From NCBI RefSeq assembly GCF_011045215.1, contig NZ_CP049201.1: 64,000 bases of DNA, one strand, 5' to 3'. Under the pieces are notes generated by a model. That model made no database searches, was not told the origin of the DNA, and saw only the letters and a list, made by a program, of their open reading frames with translations. Both the position numbers and the translations under genes were made by a program. Source of the stretch: Escherichia coli. Lineage in GTDB: Bacteria; Pseudomonadota; Gammaproteobacteria; Enterobacterales; Enterobacteriaceae. This document shows, one piece after another, positions 1-12,312 of the stretch (positions within the stretch are counted from its first letter, which is position 1; each line of letters begins with the position of its first letter).

Positions 1-1
1 C

Positions 2-592
2 GGTAATCCTCCGGCATTTTCCCTGACATCAGACGGGAGACTGACGGCGAAAAATGCGGATATCAGTGGCAGTGTGAATGCGAACTCAGGAACGCTCAAC
101 AATGTCACGATTAACCAGAACTGTACGATTAAGGGCATGCTGGAGGCGACCCAGGTCAGAGGAGATTTCGTTAAAGCTGTATCAAAAGCCTTCCCGAAAA
201 AAGTCGGTACGTGGGGTAACACGGAAACACCAAACGGTACGGTTACAGTCACCATCAGCGATGATCATAACTTTGACCGCCAGATTATTATTCCGCCCAT
301 TATTTTTAACGGTATAGCGTATGACGATCCGGGGAGCGGAAATAACCCAGGAGGCACGCGATACACGGGTTATGGTTTTGAAGTTCGCAAAAACGGCGTA
401 TTAATCGCATCCAGAGAAACTAAAGGGGCCATTCCCGGTAGTTACAGTGCAGTTATTGATATGCCGAGTGGCAGGGGAAGCGTCACTCTGGAGTTTAAGA
501 TTTTCCAGAAAGGCAATCAGGGGGCAGGCAATATCACCGACTGTACGGTGATTGTGACCAAAAAAGCCGCTTCCGGCATCAGTATTCGTTGA
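2..592 (+). CDS. Phage tail tip / host specificity protein J, C-terminal part (5' end lies before the window)
   Basis: The reading frame is open from position 2 to the stop at 592. It is followed by lom, stf and tfa in the canonical lambda order J-lom-stf-tfa. Confidence 0.6.
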   Translation, partial: GNPPAFSLTSDGRLTAKNADISGSVNANSGTLNNVTINQNCTIKGMLEATQVRGDFVKAVSKAFPKKVGTWGNTETPNGTVTVTISDDHNFDRQIIIPPIIFNGIAYDDPGSGNNPGGTRYTGYGFEVRKNGVLIASRETKGAIPGSYSAVIDMPSGRGSVTLEFKIFQKGNQGAGNITDCTVIVTKKAASGISIR

Positions 593-614
593 AATATTTA
601 TAACCCCAATAAAG

Positions 615-638
615 GGCGTCAGGAATGACGCCTTTTTT
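615..638 (+). terminator. Rho-independent terminator after J
   Basis: 7-bp stem GGCGTCA/TGACGCC with GGAA loop, followed by a T6 run. Confidence 0.5.
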
Positions 639-662
639 ATTGCAGAAAAGCGAGAGGTAATT

Positions 663-1262
663 ATGCGTAAAGTTTGTGCAGCAATTTTGTCCGCAGCCAT
701 TTGTCTGGCCGTATCCGGTGCGCCTGCATGGGCGTCTGAACATCAGTCCACGCTGAGCGCGGGGTATCTTCATGCCTCGACGAACGTCCCCGGCAGTGAT
801 GATCTGAACGGGATTAACGTGAAATACCGTTATGAGTTTACGGACACACTGGGGCTGGTGACGTCATTCAGCTATGCAGGAGACAAGAATCGCCAGCTGA
901 CCCGTTACAGCGATACCCGCTGGCATGAAGATTCCGTTCGTAACCGCTGGTTCAGCGTAATGGCGGGGCCGTCTGTGCGCGTAAATGAATGGTTCAGCGC
1001 GTATGCGATGGCGGGTATGGCTTACAGCCGTGTGTCGACTTTCTCCGGGGATTATCTCCGCGTAACTGACAACAAGGGGAAAACGCACGACGTGCTGACC
1101 GGAAGTGATGACGGTCGCCACAGCAACACGTCTCTGGCGTGGGGAGCTGGCGTGCAGTTTAACCCGACCGAATCCGTGGCCATTGATATTGCTTATGAAG
1201 GCTCCGGCAGTGGCGACTGGCGCACTGACGGTTTCATCGTGGGTGTCGGTTATAAGTTCTGA
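663..1262 (+). CDS. lom: Lom-like outer membrane protein (Ail/Lom/OmpX beta-barrel family)
   Basis: 199 aa with a signal peptide (MRKVCAAILSAAICLAVSGAPAWA), alternating beta-strand pattern and C-terminal aromatic residue (GVGYKF). Position between J and stf matches lambda lom. Confidence 0.8.
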   Translation: MRKVCAAILSAAICLAVSGAPAWASEHQSTLSAGYLHASTNVPGSDDLNGINVKYRYEFTDTLGLVTSFSYAGDKNRQLTRYSDTRWHEDSVRNRWFSVMAGPSVRVNEWFSAYAMAGMAYSRVSTFSGDYLRVTDNKGKTHDVLTGSDDGRHSNTSLAWGAGVQFNPTESVAIDIAYEGSGSGDWRTDGFIVGVGYKF

Positions 1263-1290
1263 TTAGCCAGGTAACACAGTGTTATGACAG

Positions 1291-1316
1291 CCCGCCTGTT
1301 CAGGCGGGCTTTTTTG
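1291..1316 (+). terminator. Rho-independent terminator after lom
   Basis: GC-rich stem GCCCGCCTG/CAGGCGGGC followed by a T6 run. Confidence 0.55.
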
Positions 1317-1326
1317 TGGGGTGAAT

Positions 1327-4300
1327 ATGGCAGTAAAGATTTCAGGTGTACTGAAAGACGGCACAGGAAAACCGGTACAGAACTGCACAATCCAGCTGAA
1401 AGCAAAACGTAACAGCACCGCGGTGGTGGTGAACACGCTGGCCTCAGAAAATCCGGATGAAGCCGGGCGTTACAGCATGGACGTTGAGTACGGTCAGTAC
1501 AGCGTTATTCTGTTGGTGGAAGGATTCCCGCCGTCACATGCCGGGACCATCACCGTGTATGAAGATTCCCGACCCGGTACGCTGAATGATTTTCTCGGTG
1601 CCATGACGGAGGATGATGCCCGTCCGGAGGCTCTGCGCCGTTTTGAACTGATGGTGGAAGAGGTGGCGCGTAACGCGTCCGCGGTGGCACAGAACACGGC
1701 AGCCGCGAAGAAGTCAGCCGGCGATGCCGGCACATCTGCCCGTGAGGCGGCAACCCATGCGACTGATGCTGCAGGCTCAGCACGCGCAGCCAGCACGTCA
1801 GCCGGACAGGCCGCTTCGTCGGCTCAGTCAGCGTCTTCCAGCGCAGGAACGGCATCAACAAAGGCCACTGAAGCATCAAAAAGTGCTGCCGCTGCAGAGT
1901 CCTCAAAAAGCGCGGCAGCTACCAGTGCCAGTGCCGCGAAAACGTCAGAAACGAATGCTGCAGCGTCACAACAATCAGCAGCCACTTCTGCATCCACCGC
2001 GACCACGAAAGCGTCAGAAGCTGCCACCTCAGCCCGGGATGCGTCGGCTTCAAAAGAGGCGGCAAAATCATCAGAAACGAACGCATCCTCGAGCGCCAGT
2101 AGCGCATCTTCCTCGGCAACAGCGGCAGGAAATTCCGCGAAGGCGGCAAAAACGTCAGAGACGAACGCCAGGTCTTCTGAAACGGCAGCGGGACAGAGCG
2201 CCTCGGCTGCGGCAGGCTCAAAAACAGCGGCTGCGTCGTCTGCCAGTGCAGCGTCAACAAGTGCCGGGCAGGCCTCAGCCAGTGCCACCGCCGCCGGAAA
2301 ATCGGCAGAAAGCGCCGCATCGTCTGCTTCAACAGCCACAACGAAGGCTGGCGAAGCCACTGAACAGGCCAGCGCAGCAGCGAGGTCTGCTTCCGCAGCG
2401 AAGACATCCGAAACGAACGCGAAAGCGTCGGAAACCAGCGCAGAATCCTCAAAAACGGCTGCCGCATCGTCAGCCAGTTCGGCGGCGTCATCGGCATCAT
2501 CGGCGTCTGCTTCAAAAGATGAGGCGACCAGACAAGCGTCAGCAGCGAAGAGCAGCGCCACGACGGCATCCACGAAGGCGACAGAGGCTGCTGGCAGTGC
2601 GACGGCGGCAGCTCAGAGCAAAAGTACGGCGGAATCCGCGGCAACGCGCGCCGAGACAGCAGCTAAACGGGCAGAGGATATTGCATCCGCCGTGGCGCTT
2701 GAGGATGCAAGTACGACGAAAAAGGGGATAGTACAGCTCAGCAGTGCGACCAACAGTACGTCTGAAACGCTGGCGGCAACGCCAAAGGCAGTAAAATCAG
2801 CCTATGACAATGCAGAGAAACGTCTGCAGAAAGACCAGAACGGCGCTGATATACCCGATAAGGGATGCTTCCTGAACAACATTAACGCGGTCAGTAAAAC
2901 AGACTTTGCTGATAAGCGTGGTATGCGTTATGTGCGGGTTAACGCTCCTGCAGGTGCAACATCTGGAAAATATTACCCTGTTGTTGTTATGCGTTCTGCT
3001 GGCTCAGTAAGCGAACTGGCATCAAGAGTCATTATCACCACGGCAACGCGAACCGCAGGCGATCCGATGAATAACTGCGAGTTTAACGGATTTGTTATGC
3101 CTGGTGGCTGGACTGACAGGGGGCGTTATGCTTATGGCATGTTCTGGCAATATCAAAACAATGAACGAGCCATTCACTCAATAATGATGAGTAATAAGGG
3201 CGATGATTTGCGCTCTGTGTTCTATGTTGATGGCGCTGCTTTCCCTGTTTTTGCGTTTATTGAAGATGGCCTGTCAATATCCGCACCTGGTGCTGATCTC
3301 GTTGTTAATGATACGACCTATAAGTTTGGGGCAACAAATCCGGCGACTGAATGTATCGCGGCGGACGTTATCCTTGATTTTAAGAGTGGGCGTGGTTTTT
3401 ATGAGTCTCATTCGTTAATCGTTAACGATAACTTGTCGTGCAAAAAACTTTTTGCCACAGACGAAATTGTAGCGCGTGGTGGTAATCAGATTCGAATGAT
3501 AGGTGGGGAGTATGGGGCATTATGGCGTAATGATGGCGCTAAAACTTACCTGCTGCTTACCAATCAAGGTGATGTTTATGGTGGCTGGAATACATTAAGA
3601 CCGTTTGCTATTGATAACGCAACCGGCGAACTGGTTATTGGAACCAAACTGTCCGCAAGTCTGAACGGTAATGCATTAACAGCAACAAAGCTGCAAACGC
3701 CAAGACGGGTTTCTGGTGTTGAGTTTGATGGTTCCAAAGATATTACTTTAACCGCCGCGCATGTGGCTGCTTTTGCCAGAAGGGCAACGGATACATATGC
3801 CGATGCGGATGGTGGCGTTCCCTGGAATGCCGAATCAGGCGCTTATAATGTCACCCGCTCTGGCGACAGCTATATTCTGGTTAACTTCTATACCGGAGTC
3901 GGAAGTTGCCGGACCCTGCAGATGAAGGCGCATTACAGAAATGGTGGTCTGTTCTACCGTTCTTCAAGAGACGGTTATGGTTTTGAGGAAGACTGGGCAG
4001 AAGTTTATACCTCGAAAAATCTTCCACCAGAAAGCTACCCAGTCGGCGCACCAATCCCGTGGCCATCAGATACCGTTCCGTCTGGTTATGCCCAGATGCA
4101 GGGGCAGACTTTTGACAAATCTGCCTACCCGAAACTTGCAGCCGCTTATCCGTCAGGCGTGATCCCTGATATGCGTGGCTGGACGATTAAGGGCAAGCCC
4201 GCCAGTGGTCGTGCCGTATTGTCTCAGGAACAGGACGGCATTAAATCGCATACCCACAGCGCCAGCGCATCCAGTACGGATTTGGGTACGAAAACCACAT

Positions 4301-4728
4301 CGTCGTTTGATTACGGAACCAAATCCACGAATAACACCGGGGCGCATACCCATAGTATTAGCGGGACTGCAAATAGTGCCGGTGCGCACCAACACAAGAG
4401 TTCCGGTGCATTTGGTGGCACGAACACGAGCATTTTTCCTAATGGTTATACTGCGATTTCAAATCCAAGCGCGGGGATTATGAGCACAACAAGCGGTACT
4501 GGCCAGACTCGTAATGCAGGGAAGACATCATCAGATGGTGCTCATACCCACTCACTGTCCGGCACTGCTGCAAGCGCAGGTGCACACGCACATACTGTCG
4601 GTATTGGTGCTCATACGCACTCCGTTGCGATTGGTTCACATGGACACACCATCACCGTTAACGCTGCTGGTAACGCGGAAAACACCGTCAAAAACATCGC
4701 ATTTAACTATATTGTGAGGCTTGCATAA
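1327..4728 (+). CDS. stf: Side tail fiber protein (Stf family)
   Basis: Long ORF whose N-terminus ([26 protein letters not shown]...) matches the prophage side-tail-fiber family. It has an Ala/Ser/Thr-rich repeat tract and C-terminal GAHTHS-type repeats. ATG at 1327 is preferred over the GTG at 1321 used by the ORF track. Confidence 0.85.
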
Positions 4729-5309
4729 TGGCATTCAGAATGAGTGAACAACCACGGACCATAAAAATTTATAATCTGCTGGCCGGAACTAATGAATTTA
4801 TTGGTGAAGGTGACGCATATATTCCACCTCATACAGGTCTGCCAGCAAACAGTACCGATATTGCACCGCCAGATATTCCGGCAGGCTTCGTGGCTGTTTT
4901 CAACAGTGATGAGGCATCGTGGCATCTTGTTGAAGACCATCGGGGTAAAACGGTTTATGACGTGGCTTCCGGCGACGCGTTATTTATTTCTGAACTCGGC
5001 TTATTACCGGAAAATGTCACCTGGTTATCCCCGGAAGGGGAGTTTCAGAAGTGGAACGGCACAGCCTGGGTGAAAGATGCAGAAGCAGAAAAACTGTTCC
5101 GGATCCGGGAGGCGGAAGAAACAAAAAACAACCTGATGCAGGTAGCCAGTGAGCATATTGCGCCACTTCAGGATGCTGTAGATCTGGAAATCGCAACGGA
5201 GGAAGAAAACTCGTTGCTGGAAGCCTGGAAGAAGTATCGGGTGTTGCTGAACCGTGTTGATACATCAACTGCACCTGATATTGAGTGGCCTGTAATACCA
5301 GAAGTTTAA
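4728..5309 (+). CDS. tfa: Tail fiber assembly protein (Tfa)
   Basis: 193 aa; its start overlaps the stf stop (TAATG). Sequence and position are typical of lambdoid Tfa chaperones. Confidence 0.8.
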
Positions 5310-5314
5310 AATAA

Positions 5315-5340
5315 AAGCCCGCTTAAAATATCGCGGGCTT
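5315..5340. terminator. Bidirectional terminator hairpin between tfa (+) and the catalase gene (-)
   Basis: Stem AAGCCCGC/GCGGGCTT. On the minus strand it is followed by a T-rich tract (complement of TTTAAAATAAAA). Confidence 0.45.
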
Positions 5341-5428
5341 CGAAATATAAATGTATTTTCAGAGGCTAGAGCTTAGGATATCTCAGCGGCAATTAACTTA
5401 TGAGGGATAGCTAAATACCAGAAGATAA

Positions 5429-6319
5429 TTAGTTTTTACTATTTATCTTTGTTTGTGGTTCTCCTTCAGCAAGCTCAGCGCCAGTGACAGGATTGATGTC
5501 TTCATGGGATTTCAACCTTGTTGCCATAGCTTTTATCATAGCTTCTTGCTTGGTCGAAAGATTTATCGAGGCCTTCCCATCCCCACCGTCAACCGCTGGA
5601 ACTGGATCGGAAATATAGTCAAAGTTTTCATCACTGTTCCAACTACCTCTGACGTCTTCACCTTCTGACATGTTGTAATATACGTTTTTGTATTTCTCAA
5701 TTGGTGGTAATTTTCCTGGTGGAAAGGTGTTGCGAATTGAATGTAATGCTTTTTCAAATGAAAGCATGTGTGCTGCTTCCCTGGTCATTAAAAATGCCAG
5801 AGTGTCTTTTACTCCAGGATCATCAGTAACATTAATGAGACGTTCGTAAATGATCTTTGCCCGAGCTTCAGCTGCAATATTTGAACGAAGATCGGCCGTG
5901 ACTTCGCCAATAGTATCAACATAAGCTGCAGTCCAGGGTACTCCAGCTGAATTAGTTAATGCTGGGCCTCCTCCGTAGAGGAGAGAAGTTATATGGCTGT
6001 CATTGCCATTTTGAGTTAAGGAACGGTAAAGCTCAGCTTCATTCTCAGTTCCTTCAGCAAGTGCTCCTTTTGCACCTTTGTTGAGCATACCAACAAGAGA
6101 ACCAATAATTTCGAGATGACTTAGTTCTTCTGTTGCTATGTCCATCAGCATATCCCTTCGGCCTGCATCTTCATCACTTAAGCCTTGAGTGAAGTATCGG
6201 CATGCTGCTGCAAGCTCACCCTGTGGCCCGCCGAATTGTTCTAAAAGTAGATTAGCCAAGCCTGGGTTTGGCTCACTTACACGTACTGTATATTGAAGTT
6301 TTTTCACGTGTCTAAACAT
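5429..6319 (-). CDS. katN: Manganese (non-haem) catalase, KatN-like
   Basis: 296-aa protein with ferritin-like di-metal catalase features, resembling Salmonella KatN. A GAGGAGG ribosome-binding site lies 6-12 nt upstream. It is the last gene of a co-directional four-gene cluster. Confidence 0.8.
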   Translation of the reverse strand: MFRHVKKLQYTVRVSEPNPGLANLLLEQFGGPQGELAAACRYFTQGLSDEDAGRRDMLMDIATEELSHLEIIGSLVGMLNKGAKGALAEGTENEAELYRSLTQNGNDSHITSLLYGGGPALTNSAGVPWTAAYVDTIGEVTADLRSNIAAEARAKIIYERLINVTDDPGVKDTLAFLMTREAAHMLSFEKALHSIRNTFPPGKLPPIEKYKNVYYNMSEGEDVRGSWNSDENFDYISDPVPAVDGGDGKASINLSTKQEAMIKAMATRLKSHEDINPVTGAELAEGEPQTKINSKN

Positions 6320-6337
6320 AATGCCTCCTCAAAAGAA

Positions 6338-6844
6338 TTATTTTTTGGCTTCAACTCCATCAATTTCAGATCTGACCATGAATTGCTCAGTGGTGTCAGG
6401 AATATGGTTAAGAAGCCATTCAGCCATTTGTTTTTCTTCATTAAGAATTGCTTCAATAATGGGTACTGAAGCTGTATCACCCGCATTTTTGGCTGCTGCG
6501 AGAAGAGATGTGTAGCACGCAATTTCAAATTGTTCGAAAACATAGCCACTGATCGAACCTTTGACAATTTCATCAGATGGAAAAATTCCACCAATGGATT
6601 GCCCAAACGCGGCCATTTTACTCATAGAGTCTTTAATGACAGAGCGCGAAATATTATTACGATCAAGTATGCTTTCAAGCTGTGAAAGCTGGTTCTTTGT
6701 TTCGCTAATGTGCTGCTCAATTCTGGAACGTAACTCTGGATAGTTTTCTATCCGGCTGGCCATAGACTCAAGCATTTTTTCAGCTTGTTTCTCCATCGCA
6801 TGTGCATCACGAAGCCAGTCATGGTAATGTTCAATTCTATTCAT
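6338..6844 (-). CDS. yciE: YciE-like ferritin-like (DUF892) stress protein
   Basis: 168 aa; resembles YciE; tightly linked upstream of the catalase gene. Confidence 0.75.
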   Translation of the reverse strand: MNRIEHYHDWLRDAHAMEKQAEKMLESMASRIENYPELRSRIEQHISETKNQLSQLESILDRNNISRSVIKDSMSKMAAFGQSIGGIFPSDEIVKGSISGYVFEQFEIACYTSLLAAAKNAGDTASVPIIEAILNEEKQMAEWLLNHIPDTTEQFMVRSEIDGVEAKK

Positions 6845-6880
6845 AATCTGTTTATCCTAAAAGAAATTGAAGTCTATAGT

Positions 6881-7387
6881 TCAGGAGTTATCCTGAGCTT
6901 TTTTATTAACGTTATTAAATGCCAGGTCTGTTAATTTGACATCAGTAGCTTTTTCCTCTTCCAGTGTTTCTTTCAGGAGTTTAGCCGCTTTTTTATATCC
7001 TAATTGCTCAGCGAGTGTTACCAAAGTGCCATAACTGGCAATTTCATAGTGCTCTACTTTTTGTGCTGCAGCAATCAATGCAGCATCACGTACTTCATTT
7101 TTATCAGTGCTTTCAATTACCTCATTCGCCTCTTCGATAAGTCCTTCCATTGCGGCACACTTAATTCTTTTCAATTTAAGACCATCTTCAGAATCAACAA
7201 TCTGATCGATGCGTTCAATTTGACCATGTGTCTCATCAAGATGTGACTGAAAAGCAGCGGTTAATTTATCACTATATGCAGAGCGACTAAGTTTAGACAG
7301 TGCCTTTGTTAGTTGTTTCTCAGCGCTGTATGTATCCGATAATAAGTGGATGAAGATATCTTCAACAGATTTAATTTGCATAATCAC
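6881..7387 (-). CDS. yciF: YciF-like ferritin-like (DUF892) stress protein
   Basis: 168 aa; YciF-like sequence; same orientation and operon context. Confidence 0.75.
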   Translation of the reverse strand: MIMQIKSVEDIFIHLLSDTYSAEKQLTKALSKLSRSAYSDKLTAAFQSHLDETHGQIERIDQIVDSEDGLKLKRIKCAAMEGLIEEANEVIESTDKNEVRDAALIAAAQKVEHYEIASYGTLVTLAEQLGYKKAAKLLKETLEEEKATDVKLTDLAFNNVNKKAQDNS

Positions 7388-7400
7388 TCCAGAGTTTTCA

Positions 7401-7422
7401 CTGCGAGCCCGTAGGCTCGCAG
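7401..7422 (-). other. Perfect 9-bp stem hairpin between the yciG-like and yciF-like genes
   Basis: CTGCGAGCC-CGTA-GGCTCGCAG. No clear U-tract follows, so it is more likely an RNA stabiliser or partial attenuator than a full terminator. Confidence 0.3.
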
Positions 7423-7459
7423 TTAGCTTCAGTTATTCACGAATGTAGGGGATGATAAA

Positions 7460-7642
7460 TTAAGAGTCAGATTTACGGCCGCCACCATGGCTATTCTGAC
7501 CACCTTTTTTCCCTGCTTCTGATGCTCTTTGTGGATCGTTTTTAAAATTACCGCCACTATGTTGGCCGCCTTTACGACCAGCGTCAGAAGCTTTTTGTCG
7601 ATCTTCAGCGAAATTACCTGCACCGCCACGATGTTCGGTCAT
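7460..7642 (-). CDS. yciG: YciG-like KGG-repeat general stress protein
   Basis: 60 aa with repeated KGG and GGNF motifs (MTEHRGGAGNFAEDRQKASDAGRKGGQHSGGNFKNDPQRASEAGKKGG...); first gene of the cluster. Confidence 0.7.
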   Translation of the reverse strand: MTEHRGGAGNFAEDRQKASDAGRKGGQHSGGNFKNDPQRASEAGKKGGQNSHGGGRKSDS

Positions 7643-7707
7643 ATCATTTCTCCTCTGATTTTCAAATTGTAAATAACATGTGCCTTGTCAGCACCCAATT
7701 AACTTTA

Positions 7708-7770
7708 GTAACAAATAAGAAAGTGTCAAATAACAGATTGGTATGCGCATTTTGATGTGACAAATAACAG
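7708..7770. promoter_or_regulatory. Putative promoter/operator region of the yciG-like operon with direct repeats
   Basis: Two near-identical 14-mers, GTGTCAAATAACAG (7723-7736) and GTGACAAATAACAG (7757-7770), plus a partial third copy ACAAATAA (7711-7718), in AT-rich DNA just upstream of the yciG-like start. Confidence 0.3.
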
Positions 7771-7872
7771 TTGTAAAAAATATGTGCTCAGTGAGTATAA
7801 TTTATTGATATCTTAGTGATTAATGGGAAGTTTAGGTTGTAACTCAAAAGATTAATATACCCAAATTTACAT

Positions 7873-8211
7873 TTATATATTATTTGATGCTCCTGGTGTT
7901 GTTTTTCTCAATAAGAATACTCTGTAAAATAATTCAATCGTAAGATGGTGGTTATTCATATTTTTGAGATACTTCCTAATAGAGTCCATCCCTTGAATAA
8001 ATAATTGTTTTAAAATTTCGTCTAACAAACTAATTACAAAAACTTTTATATAACCCAAAGAATCATGATTATTCTTAATCGTCAAGATTTGACCGTAAAA
8101 ATTTAAGCACAGAAAATTGTGTGCAAGGATGTGTTGTTCAGTCTGTCGAACTTTCGATAGTTTGAGTATTAAATGATTTCCAGCCGTTATTGATTTTACG
8201 CGTAATTCCAT
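7873..8211 (-). CDS. Hypothetical protein (AT-rich orphan ORF, may be spurious)
   Basis: 112-aa ORF in a strongly AT-rich stretch between the stress operon and ydfJ. No recognisable motif and no obvious ribosome-binding site. Confidence 0.2.
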   Translation of the reverse strand: MELRVKSITAGNHLILKLSKVRQTEQHILAHNFLCLNFYGQILTIKNNHDSLGYIKVFVISLLDEILKQLFIQGMDSIRKYLKNMNNHHLTIELFYRVFLLRKTTPGASNNI

Positions 8212-8377
8212 AAAAAACTTATCTGTTGGAGAGTTATTTGGGGCATATATGGGACAGAAATCGGCCCCAGATAGACAGTGAGATCGATCTCAGGACGCTT
8301 TTGAAAAAATGCAACTATCTGAAAAAACGTAGAAAACGCCAAGGAACCCACAGGATGTGAAAAAACACCTGTGAATT

Positions 8378-9661
8378 ATGGATTTCCAGTTATATTCGCT
8401 CGGCGCAGCGTTGGTGTTTCATGAAATATTTTTTCCTGAATCATCAACGGCAATGGCGTTAATTCTGGCAATGGGAACCTACGGTGCAGGTTATGTCGCG
8501 CGTATTGTCGGAGCATTTATTTTCGGCAAAATGGGCGACAGAATAGGGCGTAAAAAAGTGCTCTTTATTACCATCACCATGATGGGGATCTGTACCACCT
8601 TAATTGGTGTGTTACCGACCTATGCACAGATTGGTGTTTTTGCACCCATCTTGCTGGTGACGCTGCGTATTATTCAGGGATTGGGTGCAGGTGCGGAAAT
8701 TTCCGGTGCCGGTACGATGCTGGCGGAATATGCGCCAAAAGGTAAGCGCGGAATTATCTCCTCATTTGTGGCTATGGGAACTAACTGCGGAACCTTAAGC
8801 GCAACGGCAATCTGGGCCTTTATGTTCTTCATTCTCAGTAAAGAGGAACTGCTGGCGTGGGGATGGCGTATACCGTTCCTGGCGAGCGTTGTCGTGATGG
8901 TCTTTGCTATCTGGTTGCGTATGAATCTGAAAGAAAGCCCGGTCTTTGAGAAGGTTAACGACAGCAACCAACCAACAGCAAAACCTGCACCTGCTGGTAG
9001 CATGTTCCAGAGCAAATCCTTCTGGCTGGCAACAGGGCTGCGTTTTGGTCAGGCAGGTAACTCCGGATTAATTCAGACTTTCCTTGCAGGCTATTTAGTG
9101 CAGACGTTATTGTTTAACAAAGCAATTCCAACAGATGCATTGATGATCAGTTCGATTCTCGGCTTTATGACCATTCCGTTCCTTGGTTGGTTATCCGATA
9201 AAATTGGTCGCCGGATCCCGTATATTATTATGAATACCTCCGCGATTGTGCTGGCATGGCCAATGCTTTCTATCATCGTAGATAAAAGCTATGCCCCGAG
9301 CACCATTATGGTTGCACTGATTGTGATTCATAACAGTGCGGTGCTGGGATTATTTGCTCTGGAAAATATTACCATGGCAGAAATGTTTGGTTGTAAAAAC
9401 CGCTTTACCCGGATGGCTATTTCAAAAGAAATTGGTGGTCTTATCGCTTCCGGTTTTGGTCCTATCCTGGCAGGTATTTTCTGCACCATGACGGAATCCT
9501 GGTATCCGATCGCCATTATGATCATGGCATATTCAGTGATTGGTTTAATCTCTGCGCTGAAAATGCCAGAAGTGAAAGACCGTGATTTAAGTGCGCTGGA
9601 AGACGCTGCGGAAGATCAACCGCGTGTTGTAAGAGCTGCGCAACCTTCCAGAAGTCTGTAA
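8378..9661 (+). CDS. ydfJ: MFS transporter YdfJ (apparently N-terminally truncated)
   Basis: 427 aa with an MFS signature (GKMGDRIGRKK loop). The first transmembrane region expected in this family appears to be missing, consistent with a gene interrupted at a prophage junction. Confidence 0.85.
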   Translation: MDFQLYSLGAALVFHEIFFPESSTAMALILAMGTYGAGYVARIVGAFIFGKMGDRIGRKKVLFITITMMGICTTLIGVLPTYAQIGVFAPILLVTLRIIQGLGAGAEISGAGTMLAEYAPKGKRGIISSFVAMGTNCGTLSATAIWAFMFFILSKEELLAWGWRIPFLASVVVMVFAIWLRMNLKESPVFEKVNDSNQPTAKPAPAGSMFQSKSFWLATGLRFGQAGNSGLIQTFLAGYLVQTLLFNKAIPTDALMISSILGFMTIPFLGWLSDKIGRRIPYIIMNTSAIVLAWPMLSIIVDKSYAPSTIMVALIVIHNSAVLGLFALENITMAEMFGCKNRFTRMAISKEIGGLIASGFGPILAGIFCTMTESWYPIAIMIMAYSVIGLISALKMPEVKDRDLSALEDAAEDQPRVVRAAQPSRSL

Positions 9662-11625: not shown

Positions 11626-12312
11626 TTACTCTTCGCTAAACCAGTCGCTGTTTTCCTGGCGGATCTGGCGCACGGATTCGCTGATTTCCTGCAAATGTTG
11701 CGTCATTGCACGTTCTACCGCATCGCCATCACGTTTTTGCAGGGCAGAGAAAATATCAAGATGCTGGCGTAACAGCATTTCTGGTGGAGAAACATGGTCG
11801 AAACTCATATAGCGCACGCGATCAACGGTCGCTTTCAGGTTCTCAATGGTATCCCACGCCAGTTGACAGTCGGCAATCTGCGTCAGGAGTTGATGGAAGT
11901 TGTCATCAAGTTCAAAAAAATCATCCAGTTGCTTGCGCTCAATGGCAATGCGTTGCTGGTGAAGATTTTGTTCCAGTTGGTAGCACTGGCTTTCAGTAAT
12001 CATGCTCGCCGCCCGACGCGCCACCGCGCACTCAATGGCCTGACGGATAAAACTGCCGTTGCGCACCTGGGCCATGGAAATTTTGTTGACGTAGCTGCCA
12101 CGCTGCGGACGAATTTGAATCAGACCATTTTCCGCCAGTTTAATAAAGGCTTCACGAACCGGCTGGCGTGACACATTGAAACGAACAGAAACTTCTTTTT
12201 CCGACAACGGTGTGCCTGGAGCAATCAGGCAATGGACAATGTCGCGACGAAGGATACGATAAATTTGCTGATTGACAGGCTGTGTGGGATTAAGTTGCGT
12301 TTCGACGGTCAT
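11626..12312 (-). CDS. rspR: GntR/FadR-family transcriptional regulator RspR (YdfH)
   Basis: 228 aa with an N-terminal GntR helix-turn-helix and a FadR-type C-terminal domain. Confidence 0.85.

Follow-up and report, generated by a model that had tools for sequence, protein, structure and literature searches.

The described systems closest to the locus analysed here are the yciGFE(katN) operon of Escherichia coli K-12 and Salmonella, with the gene order yciG-yciF-yciE(-katN), and the z1924-z1921 (katN) operon carried by prophage CP-933X of the O157:H7 strain EDL933. Transcription of katN in EDL933 requires RpoS and is promoted by OxyR, and deletion of hns raises it more than 450-fold (PMC5363993); on arrays, Z1922-Z1924 were 35- to 137-fold RpoS-dependent in the same strain (PMC2907692). 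Both the kind of promoter and the regulation of the operon by RpoS and H-NS are thus already published. For the chromosomal yciG gene, the distance from the start codon to the transcription start site (TSS) is 57 nucleotides in MG1655, and Cappable-seq data for EDL933 give 57/55 (PMC10469882, Table S5 sheet 3). The yciG promoter of K-12 and Salmonella is also reported to be bound and activated by McbR/YncC (cited in PMC7705038 and PMC13343897). In a Reg-Seq preprint, yciGFE appears among the candidate targets of an unknown activator linked to osmotic conditions, with no sequence suitable for comparison.

The window, by which we mean the whole 64-kb stretch of E. coli DNA that was analysed, contains the same operon as EDL933. 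It runs along the minus strand from 7642 to 5429, in the order yciG-yciF-yciE-Mn-catalase, with the yciG-like gene at its head:

7460 to 7642, minus strand: yciG-like gene, encoding a KGG-repeat general stress protein of 60 amino acids (WP_000134810.1)
6881 to 7387, minus strand: yciF-like gene, 80% identity to K-12 YciF
6338 to 6844, minus strand: yciE-like gene
5429 to 6319, minus strand: gene for a KatN-like Mn catalase

KatN is a Mn catalase reported to be a type VI-secreted effector in EHEC. Because the cluster directly follows prophage tail-fibre and tail-fibre-assembly (tfa) genes and adjoins a truncated ydfJ, the operon is cargo of a lambdoid prophage. The cassette occupies the very end of the prophage, which is inserted in ydfJ (window 5429-8377; flanks 1-5400 and 8378-9661). 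In other strains the cassette is found in prophages elsewhere, beside zinT, ompT or an alpha/beta hydrolase gene, and a class I SAM-dependent methyltransferase gene, missing in 55989, lies upstream of it. An open reading frame at 7873-8211 was considered as a remnant of the upstream methyltransferase of these other alleles and was rejected on comparison. Over the region tested, the window is 99.9% identical to E. coli 55989 (NC_011748.1), and we refer to its allele as the 55989 type.

Similar to the arrangement in K-12 and Salmonella, the yciG-like gene is preceded by TTGACn, a spacer of 16 nucleotides and CTAnnnT followed by T(A/T)A, at a similar distance from the ATG and with a hairpin at the very 5' end of the leader. 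Unlike the K-12 locus, which lies beside trp/ompW, the window locus is in a prophage, and the DNA upstream of its -35 box cannot be aligned with that of K-12 yciG. The 5' untranslated regions differ slightly in length (53 nucleotides predicted in the window, 57 in K-12), and both the spacer and the upstream DNA of the window hold extra TTATTTG words that are not seen in other genera. The EDL933 operon is far closer: its YciG-like (WP_000134810.1) and YciE-like (WP_001079482.1) proteins are identical to those of the window, and the promoter region is 92% identical, with no change from the -35 box to the ATG other than one -10 base. That base, which gives TAAAGT in 55989, whereas every other E. 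coli allele examined has TAGAGT, is the only variable position of the core promoter. EDL933 differs in its prophage insertion site and in having the SAM-dependent methyltransferase gene upstream, which 55989 lacks. Because the results in the literature come from this other, 92%-identical allele, control by RpoS and H-NS in 55989 is something that we infer.

A preliminary description of the region upstream of the yciG-like gene, made from the sequence alone, had drawn attention to two near-identical 14-mers 20 nucleotides apart and to a partial third copy. Both are present. In a repeat search, the 14-mers on the plus strand read GTGTCAAATAACAG (7723-7736) and GTGACAAATAACAG (7757-7770), are identical at 13 of 14 positions and lie 34 nucleotides apart from start to start; the partial copy reads GTAACAAATAAG (7708-7719, plus strand). 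We found a fourth, also partial, copy at 7669-7682 (TTGTAAATAACAT), which the description had not listed. Numbered in the direction of transcription, with sequences in gene sense and distances counted from the predicted transcription start, the copies are:

7757 to 7770, minus strand: R1, distal copy, CTGTTATTTGTCAC, about -75 to -62, allele-specific
7723 to 7736, minus strand: R2, proximal copy, CTGTTATTTGACAC, -41 to -28, its right half being the -35 region
7708 to 7721, minus strand: R3, partial copy, TTCTTATTTGTTAC, also readable as (TT)CTTATTTGTTAC, forming the promoter spacer up to C(-13)
7669 to 7682, minus strand: R4, fourth partial copy, ATGTTATTTACAAT, +14 to +27

The preliminary description had placed the repeats in the leader of the operon. 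This location did not hold, as the repeats it described span -75 to -13 of the predicted start and would belong to the promoter, outside the transcribed leader. The surrounding DNA has a GC content of 26-29% over 7700-8200, compared with 47% for the window as a whole.

The elements of the predicted promoter and leader, several of which overlap the repeat copies, are as follows:

7724 to 7729, minus strand: -35 hexamer TTGACA, from a promoter scan (TTGACA-16-TAAAGT, 10/12)
7702 to 7707, minus strand: -10 hexamer TAAAGT, with C(-13) before it and TAAT after it; -10 element CTAAAGTTAAT
7695, minus strand: predicted transcription start, a G 7 nucleotides past the -10 hexamer, giving a 5' untranslated region of 53 nucleotides by analogy with K-12 yciG
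7643 to 7694, minus strand: 5' untranslated region, with two predicted hairpins (dG -14 kcal/mol, z -3.5)

The TTGACA lies inside R2 and is separated by 16 nucleotides from TAAAGT, so that the core TTGACA-16-CTAAAGT stands 59 nucleotides before the ATG. RpoS-dependent promoters typically have a C at -13 and TAA following the -10 hexamer. For comparison with other species, we took loci encoding relatives of the catalase, located yciG upstream of the catalase gene and extracted the DNA upstream of yciG. Of 35 enterobacterial yciG upstream regions, 24 have the layout TTGACn-16-CTAnnnT at 59-80 nucleotides from the ATG, by a search pattern that itself demanded the C at -13, and among the carriers are Salmonella arizonae and diarizonae, Klebsiella, Enterobacter, Leclercia, Lelliottia, Phytobacter and K-12 yciG. 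In K-12, a start placed 7 nucleotides past the -10 of this layout predicts a 5' untranslated region of 57 nucleotides. Given that this prediction equals the published distance of 57, the layout is the yciG promoter used experimentally, and the window has the same layout. By its sequence, then, the window carries a predicted yciG-family core promoter of the sigma-S type (TTGACn, a 16-nucleotide spacer and TAnnnT with C(-13)), and for the prophage copy we infer a start at about 7695. The suggestion in the preliminary description that the repeats could form part of an RpoS-dependent promoter stands for R2, which contains the conserved -35 hexamer, and for R3, which fills the spacer to C(-13), and it agrees with the published RpoS dependence of the EDL933 operon; it does not extend to the distal copy.

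The EDL933 Cappable-seq tables tell against this assignment for the prophage copy. Unlike chromosomal yciG, for which a TSS is present, the prophage yciG-like gene (gene 9030) has no TSS among the entries listed for eight conditions, where one would be expected near 1740973 (NZ_CP008957.1). Since none is listed, the prophage promoter could be very weak, silenced or located elsewhere; the missing TSS fits strong silencing by H-NS. The same data contain a TSS at 1739556, 41 nucleotides downstream of the annotated katN start codon, in all eight conditions. It corresponds to about position 6278 (minus strand) in the window, where the sequence is identical; either the gene has an internal constitutive promoter, it would seem, or its start codon has been set wrongly.

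To get an evolutionary perspective on the repeat, we examined it across alleles. Among 5,426 complete E. coli genomes, 381 have the promoter, the majority of them O157:H7. Seven alleles were aligned, and a fourth allele type and six copies from viral contigs were added. The four allele types differ in the two 14-mers as follows, in gene sense:

55989 type: R1 CTGTTATTTGTCAC, R2 CTGTTATTTGACAC, identical at 13 of 14 positions
08-00022 type: R1 TTGTTATTTGTCAC, R2 CTCTTATTTGACAC, identical at 11 of 14
2013C-4282 type: R1 TTATTATTTCTCAC, R2 CTGTTATTTGACAC, identical at 10 of 14
EDL933 type: R1 TTGCTATTTCTCAC, R2 CTCTTATTTGACAC, identical at 9 of 14

As the EDL933 copies agree at only 9 of 14 positions, a match that 193 of 500 shuffles attain and that is therefore at chance level, the repeat of the preliminary description is absent from that strain. 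Of 371 promoter-bearing E. coli genomes, only 5 have an R1 region identical to that of the window, and R1 and R2 show no co-variation among the four allele types. Examination of the variable columns in the seven-allele alignment showed that the stretch that opens with TTTGACAC at the -35 box and runs to the ATG has 2 of 88, compared with 17 of 80 in the 80 nucleotides just upstream of the -35 box and 4 of 14 in R1. The boundary runs through R2 itself, whose left part CTGTTA varies in two of six columns and whose remainder, TTTGACAC, varies in none of eight; the R3 and spacer stretch (7722-7708) is likewise invariant in all 15 columns, and the predicted leader varies in 1 of 59. Constraint therefore sets in exactly at the -35 box, and R1 varies like the unconstrained DNA beside it. 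In 23 other yciG promoters (22 from related loci and that of K-12), no upstream copy of the promoter's own -35 14-mer was found above chance.

How unusual the repeat is depends on the stretch against which it is judged. Markov resampling of the 230-bp promoter region yields a pair of 14-mers with at most one mismatch in 2.4% of cases; for the whole 735-bp AT-rich intergenic region the figure is 14%. A 13/14 match to the -35 14-mer was reached in none of 500 shuffles of the 110 nucleotides upstream, and three exact occurrences of TGTTATTT within 230 bp in 0.8% of simulations. In the whole window there are seven local 14-mer pairs of such quality, compared with 0.5 expected under a homogeneous model. 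Judged by position against the open reading frame list and the annotation, four of the remaining six seem to belong to coding repeats: the pairs at 1937/2006, 2071/2155 and 4536/4605 to tail-fibre genes and that at 7550/7622 to the KGG repeats encoded by yciG. The last two one-mismatch pairs are at 11645/11678 and 21553/21588. A scan of the window with the word CTGTTATTTGWCAC, allowing up to two mismatches, yielded one extra match, itself with two mismatches, for a total of three compared with 0.87 expected and a largest shuffle value of three. The repeat thus exceeds chance in the 55989 allele, and only modestly.

We consider it likely that these observations reflect an ordinary sigma-S core promoter of a prophage-borne operon together with an allele-specific repeat of an AT-rich word, the repeat itself being probably fortuitous. 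The proximal 14-mer would supply the -35 hexamer TTGACA and R3 the 16-nucleotide spacer ending in C(-13), to be followed by the -10 element. RNA polymerase carrying RpoS would most likely start near 7695, transcribing a structured 53-nucleotide leader and the four-gene operon, and the AT-rich DNA around the promoter would be the type of substrate that H-NS silences, as demonstrated for the EDL933 allele. The distal 14-mer would be an AT-rich word that closely matches the -35 region by chance, in the 55989 allele only, and would have no separate function; the TTATTTG-type words that recur around the promoter would likewise mostly reflect its AT-rich composition. A binding site for a dedicated regulator is unlikely, because one copy is the conserved -35 box and the other is not conserved in other strains.

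Among the alternatives, the first gives the distal copy a role as the mark of a site for McbR/YncC, a GntR-family protein that counteracts silencing by H-NS, with a weak dyad in and beside R1, not the direct repeat, as the relevant element. The reported binding and activation at the yciG promoters of K-12 and Salmonella speak for such a site, as does a partial likeness to Salmonella, where a clear dyad, ATTTAC-GTG-GTAAAT, precedes TTTGAC by about 25 nucleotides; in the window, TTTG-TCACAT-CAAA precedes it by about 27, and GTTATTT occurs in both, 36 (Salmonella) and 38 (window) nucleotides from TTTGAC. The likeness is only 10 of 21 outside this shared 7-mer, however, and the window dyad, TTTG-N6-CAAA at about -64, is weak and becomes weaker still in the common alleles. 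The region 7700-7790 has no canonical GT-N3-AC core of the FadR type, and R1 lacks the ATATAT contained in the ChIP-seq motif of K-12 McbR (PMC13343897), the sole description of McbR recognition found. We regard an McbR site here as unlikely.

It is decidedly unlikely, in our view, that the distal copy forms the spacer of overlapping secondary promoters and acts by promoter competition, not as a repeat bound by a protein. In the sense direction, the promoter scan returned a sigma-70-like TTTACA (7777-7772)-17-CAAAAT (7754-7749) at 9/12, and EDL933 has TTTACA-17-TAAGAT at the same position. On the plus strand there is a candidate antisense promoter, TTGATG (7752-7757)-18-AAAAAT, and a perfect, allele-invariant TATAAT at 7796-7801 faces away from the operon. 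For Salmonella, Beraud (2010) reportedly placed an antisense promoter directly upstream of that of yciG. Promoter-like matches number five in the region, however, compared with 4.2 expected in shuffles, and no TSS here is among the EDL933 entries listed.

The preliminary description had taken the spacing of the 14-mers as typical of operators at which a regulator binds as a dimer or in tandem. Under such a reading the 14-mers and partial copies would form a tandem operator for the regulator of the operon, for instance a response regulator that reads direct repeats. The 55989 allele offers some encouragement, since the 13/14 repeat is beyond chance there, one copy covers the -35 box in a position typical of repressors, and the gene-sense strand has four TGTTA words, whose starts are 34, 22 and 32 nucleotides apart, near multiples of 11. 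The 34 nucleotides between the 14-mers nevertheless amount to 3.2 helical turns, and the extra match in the window is not beyond chance. The variation described above is also against such an operator: among alleles, it is R1 and the left portion of R2 that vary, and they do not co-vary, the R1 of the window is found in only the few genomes counted above, and the repeat is absent from the yciG promoters of other species. EDL933 reads TGCTA/TCTTA in R1 and R2, yet its operon is still controlled by RpoS and H-NS. The operator claim is therefore not supported, and we hold a tandem operator to be very unlikely.

Known regulators were also considered one by one. The ArcA box consists of TGTTA direct repeats 11 bp apart, centre to centre. 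Similar to this arrangement, the window has four TGTTA words on the same strand near multiples of 11 bp, one of them over the -35 box, but the common alleles have lost two of these words. Unlike an ArcA box, the starts (7769, 7735, 7713 and 7681) include no adjacent 11-bp pair, and at those positions 11 bp away on either side that were checked, no more than one to three of five bases agree with TGTTA. A CRP site, with TGTGA-N6-TCACA as consensus, was rejected because TCACA at 7760-7756 is accompanied by a left half, ACTGT, that matches at two of five positions and varies among alleles. The consensus of the GadE gad box is the 20-bp TTAGGATTTTGTTATTTAAA. The repeat copies match it at 10-13 of 20 positions, nearly all through the shared TGTTATTT octamer, of which the G and T are allele-variable, and this candidate was rejected as well. 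By-eye checks against consensus sequences gave no fit for a marbox, an OxyR site or an UP element. R1 is also unusable as the -35 of a second, tandem promoter, because nothing resembling a -10 lies 16-18 nucleotides downstream, where the hexamers read CCAATC, CAATCT and AATCTG. Most improbable of all is that 55989 alone gained or preserved, by point changes, a second near-perfect -35 word that places the operon under strain-specific control by an ArcA-like regulator or McbR; if true, this would be a natural case in which control of a stress operon acquired by horizontal transfer has been rewired in one lineage, and not in O157:H7.

Two further features were seen in the AT-rich DNA upstream. 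At 7798-7810 (minus strand), about -105 from the predicted start, is TATCAATAAATTA, which matches the IHF core WATCAANNNNTTR and also, at 9/10, the high-affinity H-NS motif TCGATAAATT; the match is weaker in other alleles. Farther upstream, an inverted repeat at 7912-7922 and 8067-8077 (TAAGAATACTC and GATTATTCTTA) has arms 144 nucleotides apart, the left of which resembles half of an RcsB box.

On the other side of the promoter, the leader RNA is predicted to fold into two hairpins. The 5'-proximal one occupies 7680-7694. In the second, R4 (7669-7682, AUGUUAUUU) is predicted to pair with AAAUGAUAU immediately before the AUG, with the Shine-Dalgarno GGAG inside an internal loop. Hairpins of unrelated sequence are found at the 5' end of most yciG leaders from other species, which suggests a conserved feature of mRNA stability or translation control. 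A scan of 7300-8500 against Rfam returned nothing relevant.

The eye-catching repeat is thus confined to a handful of strains, and recognizing this spares the effort of treating it as an operator or of searching the genome for a regulon. What the analysis adds to the published regulation of this operon is a well-supported predicted core promoter for the prophage copy, with the -35 hexamer at 7724-7729, the -10 hexamer at 7702-7707 and a start at about 7695.
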